UHGV virus genome: UHGV-0155082
From: a virus
Strand: one strand, 5' to 3'
DNA length: 35,424 nt
The notes under the pieces: generated by a model
Told to the model about the DNA's origin: nothing
The model's input: the letters and a program-made list of their open reading frames with translations, nothing else
The model's database searches: none
Shown here: piece by piece, positions 5,185 through 12,216 of the stretch
Numbering within the stretch: the first letter of the stretch is position 1
How the letters are laid out: every line of letters begins with the position of its first letter
Position numbers and translations under genes: made by a program

Positions 5185-6038
5185 GCACCATCCTGAAATG
5201 GGCGGGAAATAAAACTGCCATAATGTCCGAACTGAAAAAACATCTTCCTGCTGGCCCGCGACTGGTTGAACCTTTCGCGGGTTCCTGTGCTGTGATGATG
5301 GAGACGGATTATCCCAGCTATCTGGTTGCGGATATTAATCCTGATTTAATCAACATCTATAAAAAGGTTGCCGCTGATTGTGAATCGTTTATATCTCGCG
5401 CCAGAGTTTTATTTAAGGAAGCAAACAGGGAGGTGGCTTATTACAACATAAGGCAGGAGTTTAATTACTCAACTGAAATTACTGATTTCATGAAAGCGGT
5501 ATATTTCCTGTATCTCAATCGTCACGGTTACCGTGGTTTATGTCGCTATAACAAGAGCGGGCATTTCAACATTCCCTACGGTAATTATAAAAATCCGTAT
5601 TTCCCTGAAAAAGAAATTCGCGCATTTGCAGAAAAGGCCCAGCGAGCAACGTTTATCTGCGCCAGCTTTGATGAAACGCTGGCGATGTTGAAGGCGGGGG
5701 ATGTGGTGTATTGCGATCCGCCGTATGACGGTACGTTTTCCGGCTATCACACTGACGGCTTCACTGAAGATGACCAGTATCACCTGGCATCTGTTCTTGA
5801 ACATCGGTCATCAGAAGGACATCCGGTCATTGTTTCTAACAGTGACACATCCCTGATCCGTTCGCTGTATCGCAATTTTACTCACCACTACATCAAGGCA
5901 AAACGCAGCATCGGTGTGGCAGCTGGCGAGGGTAAATCAGCAACAGAAATCATTGCTGTTTCCGGGCCGCGCTGCTGGGTGGGATTTGATTATTCGCGTG
6001 GCGTGGATAGTTCTGCCGTGTACGGAGTACGTGCATGA
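5181..6038 (+). CDS. dam: DNA adenine methyltransferase (Dam-like, N6-adenine MTase)
   Basis: ATG at 5181 preceded by GGAGGTG. N-terminal [11 protein letters not shown]...EPFAGSCAV (AdoMet-binding motif I) and catalytic DPPY motif ([10 protein letters not shown]). Confidence 0.85.
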
Positions 6039-8449
6039 GTCATGCCGATATGAACAACTGCTGCGGCTTTAACGAAGCTGCCGCATCGTTCTCATGGAAC
6101 AGCCCGAAAAAGGCCATTAACCCTTATCTGGACCCGGTGGAAGTTGCGCCGGTTTCTACGCTTTCAAACCTGATCACTCTGTACGCTGCCGATAACGAGC
6201 AGGAACAGCTGCGCCGTGAGGCGCTGAGTGATCAGGTCTGGGAGCGTTATTTCTTTAATGAATCCCGTGATCCTGTCCAGCGCGAAATGGAACAGGATAA
6301 GCTCATTAGTCGGGCAAAGCTGGCGCATGAGCAGCAGCGTTTTAATCCGGATATGGTCATTCTGGCGGACGTCAACGCCCAGCCCTCCCATATCAGCAAG
6401 CCGCTGATGCAACGTATTGAATATTTCAGCAGCCTGGGCAGGCCAAAGGCTTATTCCCGCTATTTGCGTGAGACGATTAAGCCATGTCTGGAACGACTGG
6501 AGCATGTCCGCGACTGTCAGCTATCCACTTCTTTTCGCTTTATGGCAAGCCATGAAGGGCTGGATGGCCTGCTTATCCTGCCTGAAATGAGTCAGGATCA
6601 GGTGAAGCGCCTGTCTACCCTTGTCGCTGCGCATATGAGCATGTGCCTTGATGCCGCTTGTGGTGATTTGTATGCCACCGATGACGTTAAGCCAGAAGAA
6701 ATCCGCAAAACATGGGAAAAGGTGGCAGCGGAAACCCTGCGTCTGGATGTTATTCCGCCTGCGTTTGAGCAACTCCGTCGGAAAAGAAACCGCCGTAAAC
6801 CCGTGCCCTATGAACTCATTCCGGGTTCGTTGGCGCGTATGTTGTGTGCCGACTGGTGGTATCGGAAATTATGGAAGATGCGTTGCGAATGGCGGGAAGA
6901 GCAGTTGCGTGCTGTCTGCCTGGTCAGCAAAAAAGCATCCCCCTATGTCAGCTATGAAGCCGTGATGCATAAACGTGAGCAGCGCCGTAAGTCGCTGGAG
7001 TTTTTCCGTTCTCATGAACTGGTGAACGAAGACGGCGACACGCTGGATATGGAAGATGTGGTAAACGCCAGCAGCAGCAACCCGGCGCATCGCCGCAATG
7101 AGATGATGGCCTGTGTTAAAGGTCTGGAGCTTATCGCGGAAATGCGCAGTGACTGCGCCGTTTTCTACACTATCACCTGTCCGTCGCGTTTCCATTCCAC
7201 GCTCAATAACGGCAGACCCAACCCGACCTGGACAAACTCGACGGTAAGACAAAGCAGCGACTATCTGGTCGGCATGTTTGCTGCATTTCGTAAGGCGATG
7301 CACAAAGCCGGATTGCGCTGGTATGGCGTGCGGGTGGCTGAGCCGCATCATGACGGTACAGTTCACTGGCACCTGTTGTGTTTTATGCGCAAAAAAGACC
7401 GCCGCGCCATCACTGCATTACTGCGTAAGTTTGCCATCCGTGAAGACCGCGAGGAGCTGGGCAATAACACTGGGCCGCGCTTTAAGTCTGAGTTGATTAA
7501 CCCGCGCAAAGGAACGCCGACAAGCTACATCGCGAAATATATCAGTAAGAACATTGACGGGCGTGGTCTGGCTGGCGAGATCAGCAAGGAAACGGGTAAA
7601 TCTCTGCGTGATAACGCTGAATACGTTAATGCCTGGGCGTCTCTGCATCGTGTTCAGCAATTCCGCTTCTTTGGCATTCCGGGGCGTCAGGCTTACCGTG
7701 AACTGCGATTGCTGGCTGGTCAGGCGGCAAGGCAACAGGGTGACAAAAAAGCAGGTGCTCCGGTACTGGATAACCCGCGCCTTGATGCCATTCTGGCTGC
7801 TGCTGATGCTGGCTGTTTTGCCACCTACATTATGAAGCAGGGCGGCGTGTTGGTTCCCCGCAAATATCACTTGATCAGAACCGCTTATGAAATCAACGAA
7901 GAGCCGACCGCCTATGGCGATCACGGCATTCGTATTTATGGCATCTGGTCACCCATTGCAGAGGGCAAGATCTGCACTCATGCAGTGAAGTGGAAAATGG
8001 TTCGTAAGGCCGTTGACGTTCAGGAGGCGGCAGCCGACCAGGGCGCTTGCGCCCCTTGGACTCGTGGCAATAACTGTCCCCTTGCTGAAAATTTGTACCA
8101 ACAAGGGAAAGACAAATCAGCTGATGGAGATACCAGAACGGATATCACCCGCATGGATGACAAGGAGTTGCACGATTACCTGCACAGTATGAGCAAAAAA
8201 GAGCGCCGGGAACTGGCTGCAAGGTTACGCCTGGTGAAACCGAAACGGCGTAAAGACTACAAACAGCGAATTACAGACCATCAGCGACAGCAGCTCGTCT
8301 ATGAACTGGAGTCCAGAGGATTTAATGGCAGCGAGAAAGAGGTCGATTTACTCCTTCGCGGCGGCAGTATTCCGTCAGGAGCAGGTCTGCGTATCTTCTA
8401 TCGGAACCAGCGTTTGCAGGAAGATGATAAGTGGCGAAACCTGTATTAA
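6035..8449 (+). CDS. A: Replication initiation endonuclease (P2 gpA-like rolling-circle initiator)
   Basis: 804 aa. HUH-type motif VHWHLLCF and paired active-site tyrosines YIAKYISKN. Start overlaps the dam stop (ATGA). Position after the early genes as in P2. Confidence 0.9.
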
Positions 8450-8541
8450 TTACGAGGGTTAACAATTCGTGCTCTTAATAATACCAGGCATATCAGGCTG
8501 ATGAACGTAAAAAAACGTTTTGCATCAGTAAGATTATTATA

Positions 8542-8561
8542 TACTGTAAATATAAACAGTG
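8542..8561. promoter_or_regulatory. LexA (SOS) box
   Basis: taCTGTaaatataaACAGtg matches the CTGT-N8-ACAG SOS-box consensus. Lies about 40 bp upstream of the RBS and ATG of the 8603 ORF. Confidence 0.65.
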
Positions 8562-8602
8562 GTTATGTATACAGTATTGCTTGTGGTGTCATAGGAGGAA
8601 AG

Positions 8603-8791
8603 ATGCAGGACTATTTTTTGGAGTCTTTGAAGCTCCAGCGCATTGATTTTTTTCTTAAGCTTGTAGCGGCTAGTGAGTGTAGTGATGAAGAGAAGGGGCT
8701 GGCTTTGCAGTGGGTTTCTGAACTGACAGATGAACTCATGGCAAAAATCAGAAGCCACGAATACAACCGCTCAATGGATGTCATCAGCTGA
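8603..8791 (+). CDS. Small SOS-regulated protein (62 aa), possible Tum-like antirepressor
   Basis: ATG at 8603 preceded by AGGAGG. Directly downstream of the LexA box. Followed by a DinI-like ORF, an arrangement reminiscent of 186 tum. Confidence 0.45.
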   Translation: MQDYFLESLKLQRIDFFLKLVAASECSDEEKGLALQWVSELTDELMAKIRSHEYNRSMDVIS

Positions 8792-8801
8792 GGGGACTTT
8801 T

Positions 8802-9035
8802 ATGCGCATTGAAATAATGATCGATAAAGAGCAGAAGATTAGCCAGTCTACCCTGGACGCCCTTGAATCCGAGCTTTACCGCAATCTGCGCCCCCTGTAT
8901 CCCAAAACGGTAATTCGTATCCGTAAAGGTAGCTCTAACGGTGTGGAACTGACCGGACTGCAACTGGACGAAGAAAGGAAGCAAGTGATGAAAATTATGC
9001 AGAAGGTGTGGGAAGACGACAGCTGGCTGCATTAA
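8802..9035 (+). CDS. DinI-family protein
   Basis: 77 aa starting MRIEIMIDK...; the pattern MRIE..I.K......DAL..EL.R.......P....V.....S.......G..........I..I....WE..D.W matches E. coli DinI. RBS GAGGGGA upstream. Confidence 0.75.
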   Translation: MRIEIMIDKEQKISQSTLDALESELYRNLRPLYPKTVIRIRKGSSNGVELTGLQLDEERKQVMKIMQKVWEDDSWLH

Positions 9036-9305
9036 GAAACGTTGCTGGCGTCTGAACTTGCTTCTGGCGTCAGCAAGGTTGAACAACGAGCTGTGCGAGG
9101 CGTTAGTGTCAATTTGTTACCTTAACCACGATATATGCCAGGAAATTAACAGTTCTTAAGAAACCGCTTGCATGATCGAGCGCATTGAACTTAAGTTTAA
9201 GTAACGAAATCAACAGATGATATTGTTGTCTAAATTTTAAAGATAATCTGTTGAGGTTGTAGGCGTCGGAGTGTAGACTTCCGCGCCATGTAAAAAGGGG
9301 GAGTT

Positions 9306-9521
9306 ATGTCAAGCATCGCCGCATTTAGCCTGGGTAACCCAGTTGAACGTCTGGCAAGGGTTCTTAAAGAGAACCAGGACAAACTCAATCTTAGTAAAGA
9401 TGGTTTTGTGTCCGTAGACTTGTCTAACAAAAGAGCAATGGATGCCATCAAGGCACAGATGGATAAGCTTGAAGGCATCAAAACGAGCACTGTAAAAGAG
9501 AAAACTAATAGAACCAGATAA
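9306..9521 (+). CDS. Hypothetical 71-aa soluble protein, first gene of a two-gene accessory operon
   Basis: ATG preceded by AAGGGGGAG. Stop TAA overlaps the ATG of the downstream 280-aa gene (TAATG). No recognisable motif. Confidence 0.5.
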   Translation: MSSIAAFSLGNPVERLARVLKENQDKLNLSKDGFVSVDLSNKRAMDAIKAQMDKLEGIKTSTVKEKTNRTR

Positions 9522-10363
9522 TGGCAACATTACTTTTAGCAGTGATTTTGGTTAGTGGTTTTATTTATGTAAACCTATCACTTTCAACAAGATACCGATA
9601 TAAGCGTTCCAACGGCTGGGACGCTTATTTTTTTGTGGCTGCCTGGGGTATCGTTTTTTTTCTCCTTGGCGGTTTTTTCACCTTTATTTTGAACGTCAGC
9701 GGAGGGTTTCGTTGGCTGGCTAATGCCTTGAATCTAACACCTGACAGTTTTAATGGCATGTTGTCTTCATCGAAAGACAAACTTCAAAGAATAAATGAAA
9801 TCAAACAGATAGCATGGGTTATGATTTCAATTGTCCTCGCTGCGATTTCAGGTTTTGGAAATAAGTTACGCACATCACGTGGAGATCGTCGCTGGGATGC
9901 CTTAGCTAAAGCTGTGGGTAATAACGCTTTCGAATCATTACTCATGGAAGCGTCCGCAAGACAGTTTCCGATCATAGCAACTCTGTCGTCTCGCAAAATC
10001 TATGTTGGTCTTGTTACTTGTCCGGCGTTAGAAAACGGGCTTTCAGAGCACCTTGAACTTCTCCCGATGTTAAGCGGATATCGGGATAAAGATGATCTAA
10101 CGATTAGTATCACGACTAACTATCACCAACATTATCTTGATAGTGGTGTGATAAGTGGAATGTCTCGTCTTAATATCGAAGATTTCCGTGTGCTCATACC
10201 AAAAGATGAGGTTGAAACAATTTCGTTTTTTGATACTGAGACATATAACAAATTTAAAGAAAATGAAGCCAGGGATAGAAAGAGCTGTCGAAAGATTGGT
10301 AGTAAAAGTGCATCTTCGCGCAGCAAGCGTGCAGCAGATGCTGAGTCAAATGATCGTGCATGA
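9521..10363 (+). CDS. Hypothetical 280-aa integral membrane protein (three predicted TM helices plus a charged C-terminal domain)
   Basis: Hydrophobic segments LLLAVILVSGFIYVNLSL, AYFFVAAWGIVFFLLGGFFTFIL and IAWVMISIVLAAISGFG. Lysine/serine/arginine-rich C-terminal tail. Occupies the position of tin/old in P2. Followed by a terminator. Confidence 0.6.
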   Translation: MATLLLAVILVSGFIYVNLSLSTRYRYKRSNGWDAYFFVAAWGIVFFLLGGFFTFILNVSGGFRWLANALNLTPDSFNGMLSSSKDKLQRINEIKQIAWVMISIVLAAISGFGNKLRTSRGDRRWDALAKAVGNNAFESLLMEASARQFPIIATLSSRKIYVGLVTCPALENGLSEHLELLPMLSGYRDKDDLTISITTNYHQHYLDSGVISGMSRLNIEDFRVLIPKDEVETISFFDTETYNKFKENEARDRKSCRKIGSKSASSRSKRAADAESNDRA

Positions 10364-10410
10364 CTATGCTGCATGAGATCGCATGATCGTTTGAGGATCG
10401 TTTTTGCTAA

Positions 10411-10436
10411 GGCCCGCCAGAACTGGCGGGCTTTTG
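10411..10436 (+). terminator. Rho-independent terminator after the 71-aa/280-aa operon
   Basis: GC-rich hairpin gcccgccag / ctggcgggc followed by TTTT. Confidence 0.65.
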
Positions 10437-10480
10437 CGTAGATCATGCACCTGCATGAAAACTACTACATAAAGCGGGCA

Positions 10481-10499
10481 GGCGTGGCGGGGATACGAG
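10481..10499. other. Candidate cos (cohesive-end) region
   Basis: GC-rich ggcgtggcggggatacgag matches about 14 of 19 positions of the P2 cohesive end as I recall it (ggcgaggcggggaaagcac). Lies in non-coding DNA upstream of the portal/terminase cluster. Recalled from memory and not verified. Confidence 0.3.
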
Positions 10500-10588
10500 C
10501 GCGCGCTGATGGGGGACGCAGTGCTTTTGGCATAGTTATGAGGTAGAATTTCAAAATACTTTTTAGCGCTGTTGGAGGTATAGACAAA

Positions 10589-11134
10589 ATGGACGTTATA
10601 ACTGGAGTTGCAGAGTTTTTTCGAAAAGTACCTGCAGCATTTCTTGTGGCTATTACATGTGTTTTAGGTCTTATACTTTTTCTGCCAGACTCTTTGGCAG
10701 TAAAAGTGGCTGTTGATGGCTTTCGTAATGAGTATAGGATTTTTATTGGACCTGCATTTTTACTGTCTGTATCTTATTTAGTTGCAAGAGTCTATCTCTC
10801 TTTCTATGACTTACTTGGTGAAAGGCAGGCTAAGAAGGTACGCACTTCCTACCTTGAGAAGCTAACAGCAGAAGAAAAAGGATATTTAAAGTCTTATATT
10901 ACCGAAGGTGTTAATTCACTTATGTGTGGGCCTGAGGATGGGGTCATGGGGGGACTTGTGGCTAAGGGGATTACTTATAGAGCCACCAGTGTTGGGGATA
11001 TGATCTACGGTTTTGCTTTCAACTTACAGCCATGGGCGCGTGAACATTTAGAGAAAAATAGTCATTTATTAGATGGGGCTATTGGGCGTGCAATGACTCC
11101 AAGAGAAAAATTAAACTTTAGATTGGGACGCTAA
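10589..11134 (+). CDS. Hypothetical 181-aa membrane protein, possibly a superinfection-exclusion (SieB-like) protein
   Basis: ATG preceded by GGAGG. N-terminal TM helix AAFLVAITCVLGLILFLP and a second hydrophobic segment IFIGPAFLLSVSYLVARVYL. Lies between the cos-like element and the portal gene. SieB assignment is from weak recollection only. Confidence 0.45.
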   Translation: MDVITGVAEFFRKVPAAFLVAITCVLGLILFLPDSLAVKVAVDGFRNEYRIFIGPAFLLSVSYLVARVYLSFYDLLGERQAKKVRTSYLEKLTAEEKGYLKSYITEGVNSLMCGPEDGVMGGLVAKGITYRATSVGDMIYGFAFNLQPWAREHLEKNSHLLDGAIGRAMTPREKLNFRLGR

Positions 11135-11180
11135 CCAGTCACACATTACCAATGTGTGACTGGTGGTGGTTATTTCTTTT
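11135..11180. terminator. Perfect 13-bp inverted repeat (hairpin) with T-rich tail, probable terminator between convergent genes
   Basis: ccagtcacacatt-acc-aatgtgtgactgg (11135..11163) followed by tggtggttatttctttt. Sits between the stop of the 181-aa gene and the stop of Q. Confidence 0.55.
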
Positions 11181-12216
11181 ATTCAATGTCAAATTTATAT
11201 GGTTCAAAAGAAATAACCTTTTCCCCCAACCACTCATTTAGTTCTTCGAGTCTTTTTTGTAGCGGTATTAACTCATTACGGACAAAGACGCGGCTGGCTT
11301 TTTCCACATCACCAAAGCCGCCGGTATTGTTGGGAATAATGCCCATCATTTGCGGCGGCACACGATGCGCCGCCATCATGTCATCCCGGCTCACGTTCTT
11401 GATATTCAAAAACTCATCCTTCGCTGCGACCTCTGACAACGGGATAATCTGAAGGCCGTCTTTTTTGCCGTTGGGCGAGTACATAAACAGGTTTCGGAAG
11501 TTACCCGGACCTTTGGCGCTTTTCATTGCGTTGCGGAGGTTGTTCACATCCTCCTGGTTCTGCGCGGCATCGGTCATATACATGATGAAGCCTGCATGAC
11601 TGCCGTTAATGTAATACTTGCGGCGGAACAGCGTGGCGGACTCGTTGAGCAGGGCTGACGGAATGGCAGAAAGATAACCGGGCAGGCCGTAGATCTCCTG
11701 GTTAATGTCCGGTTCCATCAGATGAAAAATGCTGCCTTTCGTGAACTGATACGGCTGGGTTGTCATACCGTATTGCACAAACCAGTAGGTATCCAGGTCT
11801 AATCCGCGTCGGGTGTATTTTGCCAGCGCAGGTTCAAGGGCGATCACTTCACCGAAGCGGTTCGTGCGTTTCTCCAGGTAGGCGTTACCAAATACCAGAT
11901 AGTCCTGCACAAAACGTGAAAAAGCCTGCTGGCTGAGCAGCGGGTGAGGGATATAGGTGCTGGTCAGAATGTTGCACTTTACTGCAATCGGTGAGCTGTG
12001 GTGCACGGCGGCGCGGAATGTTCGCGCCAGTCCGTCAAAGCTGACGGGCGGCTCATACCAGCGGTCCATCTGTACGCATTCCACATAGTCCAGCAGTTCA
12101 CGGCGGTCCAGAACAGGAACGGGATCGCCAAAGCTGAATGCTTCGGCTGTAGTCTGGCTTTTATGCTTGAGCTGATTCGTCGCCGCAGCGCGGTTTTTCT
12201 TACTCTTTCCCATCAA
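11179..12216 (-). CDS. Q: Capsid portal protein (P2 gpQ-like)
   Basis: 345 aa. Adjacent to and co-oriented with the large terminase, divergent from the O-N-M-L operon, as in P2. Translation reads as a typical P2 portal protein. Confidence 0.85.
   Translation of the reverse strand: MMGKSKKNRAAATNQLKHKSQTTAEAFSFGDPVPVLDRRELLDYVECVQMDRWYEPPVSFDGLARTFRAAVHHSSPIAVKCNILTSTYIPHPLLSQQAFSRFVQDYLVFGNAYLEKRTNRFGEVIALEPALAKYTRRGLDLDTYWFVQYGMTTQPYQFTKGSIFHLMEPDINQEIYGLPGYLSAIPSALLNESATLFRRKYYINGSHAGFIMYMTDAAQNQEDVNNLRNAMKSAKGPGNFRNLFMYSPNGKKDGLQIIPLSEVAAKDEFLNIKNVSRDDMMAAHRVPPQMMGIIPNNTGGFGDVEKASRVFVRNELIPLQKRLEELNEWLGEKVISFEPYKFDIE

Follow-up and report, generated by a model that had tools for sequence, protein, structure and literature searches.

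The DNA considered here is the UHGV virus genome UHGV-0155082, a stretch of 35,424 nucleotides (nt) that we call the window throughout. It is a P2-like prophage with gpA (6035-8449), a DinI-like protein and portal, terminase and capsid genes; two plus-strand open reading frames (ORFs), encoding proteins of 71 and 280 amino acids (aa), occupy the interval between DinI and the portal, and the ATG of the large gene overlaps the TAA of the small one (TAATG). We describe this gene pair as a conserved module whose larger gene, coding for a membrane protein, contains an embedded terminator-like hairpin, and we tentatively discuss it as a phage-exclusion system. Its elements are the following.

9189-9202, no strand: conserved palindrome ACTTAA-GT-TTAAGT, some 50 nt 5' of the -35 hexamer
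9251-9279, plus strand: predicted sigma-70-type promoter, with -35 TTGAGG (9251-9256), a 17-nt spacer and -10 TAGACT (9274-9279)
9295-9303, plus strand: ribosome-binding site AAGGGGGAG, read from the sequence, 2 nt 5' of the small-gene ATG
9306-9521, plus strand: small partner gene, 71-aa ORF
9521-10363, plus strand: large gene, 280-aa ORF
9521-9589, 9620-9709 and 9800-9856, plus strand: segments of the large gene coding for transmembrane (TM) helices
9600-9635, plus strand: terminator-like element given by a terminator scan, codons 27-39 of the large gene
about 9926-10228, plus strand: segment of the large gene coding for a predicted cytoplasmic Sm-like barrel
10256-10360, plus strand: segment of the large gene coding for a variable charged tail
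10409-10436, plus strand: operon terminator, a GC-rich 11-bp stem followed by UUUU (-23.4 kcal/mol, z -4.2)

Both genes are labelled hypothetical in RefSeq (WP_000094764, WP_024220380). They are nevertheless real genes and not chance ORFs, because the pair is kept in 88 loci. The pairing is obligate: a motif-bearing small ORF stands directly upstream of the large gene in 88/88 loci, which represent 60 distinct large proteins, with intergenic distances mostly between -4 and +16 nt. The two proteins co-diverge (r = 0.84; 0/2000 in a Mantel test), and in a wider scan of species the small partner is detectable at no fewer than 54 of the 62 loci. In two of the 88 loci, L049 and L059, both on viral contigs, the large gene is frameshifted (67 and 57 aa) and the small gene intact, which could be due to sequencing error or to occasional inactivation of the membrane protein.

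The anatomy first proposed for the operon, a pair translationally coupled through TAATG with its own ribosome-binding site and its own terminator, was recovered: the ORFs, the overlap, AAGGGGGAG and the hairpin at 10409-10436 are all present. An AGGAGG-type ribosome-binding site is kept in the aligned upstream regions of the homologues, and none of 200 shuffles matches the stability of the operon terminator. The promoter was missed by a consensus scan because it scores only 8/12; both of its hexamers are in register in diverged homologues, the -10 being TATAAT in L055, TATGAT in L066 and TATACT in L069. The cassette has a GC content of 41%, compared with 53% for gpA. Thus the pair displays what is expected of a phage moron, i.e. 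an autonomous promoter and terminator, an atypical composition, and a presence and position that vary among related phages.

Within the large gene, 80-115 nt from its start, lies a hairpin with a 12-bp stem (ATAAGCGTTCCA/TGGGACGCTTAT) and the loop ACGGC, followed by T7. Its folding energy is -16.4 kcal/mol (z -3.9 versus shuffled sequence), and none of 1000 codon-usage-matched synonymous recodings was as stable. The nucleotides of the hairpin are unchanged in homologues with just about 45-60% protein identity. Computed over 22 lineages of less than 80% identity, synonymous-codon identity reaches 0.70-0.74 at codons 27-38, the maximum of the gene, versus 0.40 gene-wide. The stem codons are kept (K28 AAG in 18/18, R29 CGT in 17/21, D34 GAC in 16/16, A35 GCT in 18/18 and F37 TTT in 19/19); free variation occurs at the loop codon G32 (GGC 8, GGA 4, GGT 10) and at the flanking V39 and A40. 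Across the stem 92.6% of cells are paired, versus 28-45% when the partner is slid. In two unrelated lineages, L070 and L090, the change CGT to CGC is accompanied by GAC to AGC or GGC, so that U-A becomes C-G; these two independent compensations replace Asp34 by Ser or Gly. Of 67 distinct homologue sequences, 62 have a T-run of five or more. The distant member of phiES15 has a different hairpin near the same site (-21.5 kcal/mol, 0/1000 recodings as stable), and the member of phage U5 has a stem followed by T6 at codons 7-15. A different 5'-proximal hairpin in a Shewanella member (p about 0.008) is suggestive at most, because the best window was selected.

The element thus has the stem-loop and U-tract of intrinsic terminators and a structure conserved beyond coding constraint, and we infer that 9600-9635 would terminate transcription, truncating most transcripts past the small gene. 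This hairpin is the strongest clue suggesting that the membrane protein must stay scarce. It differs from leader attenuators in that the terminator is placed inside the downstream coding sequence, where it constrains codons and even residue 34. Whatever the function of the pair, such a coding-embedded terminator deserves attention: with its fixed synonymous sites and its compensatory changes overriding a conserved aspartate, it offers a clean natural case in which RNA structure constrains the evolution of a protein, and a ready handle on how toxic accessory genes are throttled. A weaker second zone is found at codons 236-254 of the large gene (10226-10282), with a synonymous-codon identity of 0.50-0.56 versus the same 0.40; it may reflect codon bias in a stretch rich in Lys, Glu, Phe and Asp, or another constraint at the nucleic-acid level.

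The large protein had been described from its sequence as having three N-terminal TM helices and a highly charged tail rich in Lys, Ser and Arg. The helices agree with the hydropathy profile, which gives hydrophobic segments at residues 1-23, 34-63 and 94-112. As for the tail, it is indeed present (residues 246-280, with 11 K/R and 6 D/E), but it is not conserved, being variable or missing in homologues. An AlphaFold2 (AF2) model built on a 32-sequence alignment, with a predicted local distance difference test score (pLDDT) of 76.5 overall and 70-89 across the C-terminal domain, places TM helices at 2-19, 33-60 and 87-119, then two short helices, then five strands (150-155, 159-165, 177-189, 194-200, 224-236) with an insertion of about 25 residues between strands 4 and 5, and finally a helix (239-260) and a disordered tail. 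By the positive-inside rule, the RYRYKR loop and the Sm-like domain are on the cytoplasmic side, and the predicted topology is N-out/C-in. Proteins of the Sm/LSm/Hfq fold have an N-terminal helix and then five antiparallel strands in a strongly bent barrel, and the conserved cytoplasmic part of the protein is, as modelled, a Sm-like barrel. A fold search of BFVD with this model matched only unannotated small phage Sm-like proteins. The conserved motifs are a (K/R)xSxGW..Y(F/H) loop, RK.YVG, SGYRDKD.L, TTNY..HY and SFFD..TY; SGYRDKD is the most conserved of them and sits in the beta3-beta4 turn of the model. The periplasmic loop is the least conserved part of the protein.

The 71-aa small protein is soluble and basic, without hydrophobic segment, and its core motif is ERL..LK.N...(D/N)G.h.h(D/N). 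The layout predicted by AF2 is a helix at 12-22, a beta-hairpin at about 28-34 and a long helix at 42-69, with a pLDDT of 66; the small protein is probably not an autonomous fold.

The predicted architecture of the large protein invites a comparison with the mechanosensitive channel MscS, which is similar in size (286 aa): three TM helices, predicted N-out/C-in, of which TM3 runs into a cytoplasmic Sm-like barrel. In MscS this barrel assembles as a heptameric ring, as archaeal Sm proteins do (bioRxiv 10.1101/140376). The large protein nevertheless has no Pfam MS_channel_1st, 2nd or 3rd match, and its hhalign probability against the MscK core is 0.08%. MscS chains are absent from the best structural matches of its model. 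It also lacks the C-terminal alpha-beta domain, a single helix and a disordered tail following the barrel, and its family is distinguished by the obligate small partner gene and by the embedded attenuator. The resemblance to Sm proteins likewise shows in the model only: none of 23 family members has a Pfam LSM/Hfq signature at E <= 5, and hhalign against Hfq gives a probability of 0.25%, a weak negative. The protein differs from Sm, LSm and Hfq proteins by its membrane anchor and by the insertion between strands 4 and 5. The canonical nucleotide-pocket loops of Sm proteins lie elsewhere than in the beta3-beta4 turn, where the model places SGYRDKD. The WYL-domain sensors of the defence regulators BrxR, CapW and DriD match the model less well than Sm proteins do, and the large protein, which has neither a helix-turn-helix nor a WYL Pfam match, is not a transcription factor.

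Among prophage membrane proteins for exclusion or abortive infection (Abi), the closest known ones have, as far as we know, no counterpart of the Sm-like domain or of the intragenic terminator. The pair resembles SieB, RexAB, the 2TM+1TM+TIR system of Rousset and Tin/Old of P2 in being prophage-encoded at a hotspot or moron site and in associating an inner-membrane component with a soluble partner, and it occupies the same slot as Tin/Old; it has, on the other hand, no homology to SieB, to PADLOC models or to the Rousset test set. With type II toxin-antitoxin (TA) modules it shares small, adjacent, co-directional and overlapping genes that are inherited together, and the terminator would favour the upstream product; it differs from them by the lack of any known toxin or antitoxin fold in Pfam, NCBIfam and PDB searches.

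The absence of any recognisable defence or other family, noted at the outset, was borne out for both proteins: neither has a family match in Pfam, NCBIfam, PADLOC or PDB sequences, and profile searches of PDB sequences gave nothing for the large one. A TrmBL2 match of the small protein in PDB sequences (34 residues, E = 0.008) was treated as noise. In PHROGs, the small protein is phrog_9843 (E 1.4e-36) and the large one phrog_3630, with phrog_23864 for its C-terminal domain, all of unknown function. No Rfam family was found within 8900-11300 of the window. The database names of the small protein, 'multidrug ABC transporter ATPase' and 'YobD', are widespread but wrong, and were dismissed as propagated errors, like the 'HrcA' label on one large homologue of Photorhabdus.

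The original prediction also presented the pair as a candidate undescribed system, and the literature supports this. Table S5 of Rousset 2022 repeatedly lists it as 'hypothetical + hypothetical', at times with SieB (PMC9122126), and this is its only entry, outside the tested systems, in whose sequences its motif strings were not found. Its accessions, PHROG ids and motif strings are mentioned in no paper found by our literature search, which also turned up no published trial of the pair against phages. Identity with the 'hp+hp+hp' (3HP), Hydrolase+3TM and 2TM+1TM+TIR systems of Rousset is ruled out, as the sequences differ. The module is thus undescribed, and its association of a 3-TM anchor, a Sm-like barrel, an obligate small partner and a coding-embedded terminator has no characterised counterpart; the functional class to which it likely belongs, a prophage-borne two-gene membrane exclusion module, is already known.

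The family is very large. An exhaustive profile search collects 2,900 clusters at 50% identity (E <= 1e-3), or 2,031 at E <= 1e-10, nearly all full length; word-indexed homology searches gave just 57 and 81 clusters, a large underestimate. Neither Pfam nor NCBIfam has a model for the family. The exact proteins are encoded by 582 and by at least 1,000 contigs, and the exact cassette in 52 of 5,426 complete E. coli genomes. A one-pattern scan with one genome per species retrieved 63 species, from Enterobacterales, Pasteurellaceae, Vibrionaceae, Alteromonadales, Neisseria, Snodgrassella and Advenella, plus metagenome-assembled genomes of several other phyla.

The slot between gpA and cos of P2-type phages accounts for about half of the distinct contexts of the pair. 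In other phages it is found in the lambdoid nin region, between tail genes K and I, after J, after gpD/gpS and between integrase and attP. It also stands between the major tail protein and tape measure genes, in an Aeromonas prophage (L010 5785-6771) and in L090-L100. This interval is the expected place of tail-assembly chaperone genes; in L010 no other ORF of 70 aa or more separates the pair from the tape measure gene, and in L090-L100 an ORF of about 110 aa is present there. Further contexts are IncC conjugative plasmids, a tail cluster on a Pantoea megaplasmid and ordinary chromosomal neighbourhoods. The IncC case is a 23%-identical pair (68 + 262 aa; L101 3872-6789) carried by 25 Salmonella plasmids, among which the conjugative IncC plasmid NZ_CP016864.1 was examined. 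There the pair, which likewise has no match among PADLOC models, adjoins a RecD-like ATPase of 547 aa that matches PADLOC typeIV_RecD, PDC-S68 and PDC-M16A and has a weak match to AbiO/Nhi; the region is near a DNA methyltransferase and mer genes. In several species of Pectobacterium (L013 5372-6819), DinI and the intact pair, hairpin included, are flanked by genes for a MscK-type channel and a major facilitator superfamily transporter, and the surroundings hold no further phage genes. The locus looks like a domesticated prophage remnant, and the retention of the pair without phage genes suggests that it benefits the host. The pair is a mobile accessory module, or 'moron', of temperate phages and plasmids.

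In the window the pair had been assigned to the tin/old hotspot, and this location is confirmed: the slot is the gpA-gpQ interval, a P2 hotspot that holds old and tin in P2 and validated defence systems elsewhere (Rousset 2022, PMC9122126). What does not hold is the view of the pair as hypervariable cargo of this slot. In P2-like loci it is always adjacent to gpA/DinI, and the space between it and the portal is either empty or filled with a second, highly variable cassette, so that the defence systems swap on the cos side. These cos-proximal cassettes (L002 4195-5834; L022 5062-7042; L054/L046; L036) include bSEFIR, a type II-A retron (NDT and RT proteins), Septu PtuA/PtuB, a HEPN/PD-Lambda-3-like protein (Hypoth_Ymh/HEPN) and, in the window, SieB. 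Such a layout in two slots, with the stable pair by gpA and swapping defence systems by cos, bears on analyses of hotspots. Unannotated two-gene cassettes are also seen in cos-proximal position and are further candidates: one of 557 + 370 aa in L024, whose 557-aa protein has a weak DitB-like PADLOC match, and one of 154 + 257 aa in L030, without PADLOC match.

From all this we tentatively read the pair as a throttled membrane effector and its small regulator, at work in defence by abortive infection or exclusion, a reading that we hold as possible though short of probable. Abortive infection is plausible from the genomic context and the architecture. The Sm-like domains would assemble as a hexa- or heptameric ring beneath the membrane, like Sm/Hfq proteins and the beta-domain of MscS, and 18-21 TM helices would thereby come together in a structure that resembles a pore or perturbs the membrane. 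The embedded terminator, by ending most transcripts after the small gene, would leave the small protein in excess and keep the potentially toxic membrane protein scarce; the small protein might then bind and restrain the ring, or sense for it. Upon infection, restraint would be lost or read-through of the terminator would rise, and the released assembly might depolarise the membrane (abortive infection) or block genome entry.

This reading as defence is based on the hotspot site and its defence-system neighbours, on moron behaviour and on the throttling of a membrane protein. The pair co-resides with each of the five known cassettes named above, it is found as the same obligate pair at many accessory sites, its GC content is low, and it brings its own promoter and its own terminator. 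Several observations weigh on the other side. Ring formation, pore activity, toxicity, binding by the small protein and in vivo termination are predictions, and the confidence of the small-protein model is low. Neither protein matches PADLOC-DB v2.0.0 below E = 0.1, candidate PDC families included. In the 63 species the nearest neighbours are phage or housekeeping genes and not classical defence domains; no defence-island association was seen beyond the P2 hotspots, and the family, with its 2,900 clusters, has been missed by all defence-island screens. Within the slot, the pair is the member that stays and not the one rapidly swapped, and the hotspots of P2 also hold non-defence cargo, such as partition systems and toxins (Rousset 2022, PMC9122126). 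Although catalogued in that same study, the pair is not among the systems that were cloned and tested there (PMC9122126).

If the pair is indeed a defence or exclusion system, it would bring a new effector architecture, the membrane-tethered Sm ring, into bacterial immunity, and would account for about 2,900 clusters for which Pfam has no model and databases offer wrong names only. One can go further and imagine a new and widespread class of defence effectors, in which the membrane-anchored Sm ring is a MscS-like pore gated from the cytoplasmic side, either when its Sm-like domain binds a nucleic acid or nucleotide or when the small partner is released, and in which synthesis is licensed by the translation-coupled terminator within the effector's coding sequence. 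The latter would then be an infection sensor, read through more often when a phage perturbs transcription-translation coupling or nucleotide pools. We regard this extension as a long shot.

Other explanations share part of this evidence. The membrane protein might block incoming phage DNA without killing the cell, the small protein being an assembly or regulatory partner. HK97 gp15, T4 Imm and P22 SieA do block DNA entry from the inner membrane without cell killing. An inner-membrane protein present in many temperate phages, often inside tail-gene clusters and by tape-measure genes, which are typical sites of exclusion morons, and with a SieB-family neighbour in the window, would fit such non-abortive superinfection exclusion. 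However, proteins of this kind are usually small and constitutive and have no cytoplasmic partner, whereas a large conserved Sm-like domain and an embedded attenuator suggest a dangerous, regulated effector; besides, the periplasmic loop, where contact with the phage is expected, is the least conserved part of the protein. We therefore give this explanation more weight than the other alternatives, while judging it unlikely. Less likely than exclusion, in our opinion, is an addiction module of TA type stabilising the prophage or plasmid, with a membrane toxin, a small upstream antitoxin and no dedicated anti-phage role. The small gene is upstream of the larger one and overlaps it, the attenuator would raise the abundance of the upstream product, a palindrome precedes the promoter, conjugative IncC plasmids and a retained prophage remnant both carry the pair, and two of the 88 large genes are frameshifted. 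Nevertheless no known toxin or antitoxin family is matched, the small protein has no recognisable DNA-binding fold, and the palindrome lies outside the promoter, unlike the usual TA operators. As many TA modules are defence systems, this explanation also overlaps the throttled effector that we favour.

A third group of functions would be unrelated to phages: by lysogenic conversion, a MscS-like solute valve or a membrane-tethered, Hfq-like RNA-binding ring might alter the physiology of the host. Three TM helices followed by a Sm-like barrel are the layout of the MscS core, Sm/Hfq proteins bind RNA, and many members of this very large family are in ordinary chromosomal neighbourhoods; the differences from MscS and from Hfq described above are to be set against these likenesses, and we rank such a conversion below the addiction module, as rather improbable. 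Least probable of the four is a role in the life cycle of the carrier, such as timing lysis, docking replication or packaging at the membrane, or controlling induction. It is true that in P2-like phages the pair always directly follows gpA/DinI, downstream of a LexA-controlled operon from which no canonical terminator separates it, so that it may be SOS-co-induced. But its positions in unrelated phage types and plasmids are unrelated, and it comes with its own promoter, its own terminator and a foreign GC content. The pair is moreover dispensable, since it is present in 52 of the 5,426 E. coli genomes versus 1,274 with the neighbouring cos block.

Concerning regulation, the palindrome at 9189-9202 is probably a regulator-binding site, a candidate suggested by its conservation: ACTTAA-N1-2-TTAAGT is retained in the window, L002, L033, L046, L048, L050 and L055, where it is a perfect 7-1-7 repeat, and it is degenerate in Pectobacterium L013. 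Further upstream (8520-9035, plus strand), a perfect LexA box (8544-8559), within TACTGTAAATATAAACAGTG (8542-8561), overlaps a TTGCAT...TATACT promoter that precedes a 62-aa ORF (phrog_698) and the DinI-like gene (8802-9035). These two genes look like a SOS-inducible operon reminiscent of the tum region of phage 186. LexA control of the pair itself was rejected, as the sole perfect LexA box belongs to this upstream operon; the hairpin that follows DinI has no U-tract, however, so that SOS read-through into the pair is possible.

Downstream, the operon terminator of the pair sits within a block of about 150 bp (10356-10507) common to many P2-like prophages: it is present in the 1,274 E. coli genomes mentioned above and in many P2-like phages of Klebsiella and Salmonella, and marks the border between the two cargo slots of the hotspot. 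Its cos-like core GGCGTGGCGGGGATACGAG (10481-10499) aligns with GGCGAGGCGGGGAAAGCAC of P2, which we take to be the P2 cos sequence. The latter is the cohesive-end region of the fragments cloned in Rousset 2022. The presence of this core in the block means that cos separates the pair from the next gene:

10589-11134, plus strand: SieB-family superinfection-exclusion gene (PF14163, E 4.5e-25), with two N-terminal TM segments

This gene begins 226 bp downstream of the pair, between the cos-like site and the portal gene, and its ORF has no PADLOC or PHROG match. Being beyond the cos-like site, it would be at the opposite end from the pair in virion DNA. The pair and SieB are found together in 7 complete E. 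coli genomes versus 52 for the pair, and other P2-like loci have SieB without the pair. A kinship between the pair and sieB was considered and rejected: the pair has no PF14163 match, hhalign gives nothing, and the two occur independently. Between the convergent sieB and portal genes, at 11134-11164, lies a terminator-like hairpin with a perfect 14-bp stem, ACCAGTCACACATT ACC AATGTGTGACTGGT, without a strong T-run.

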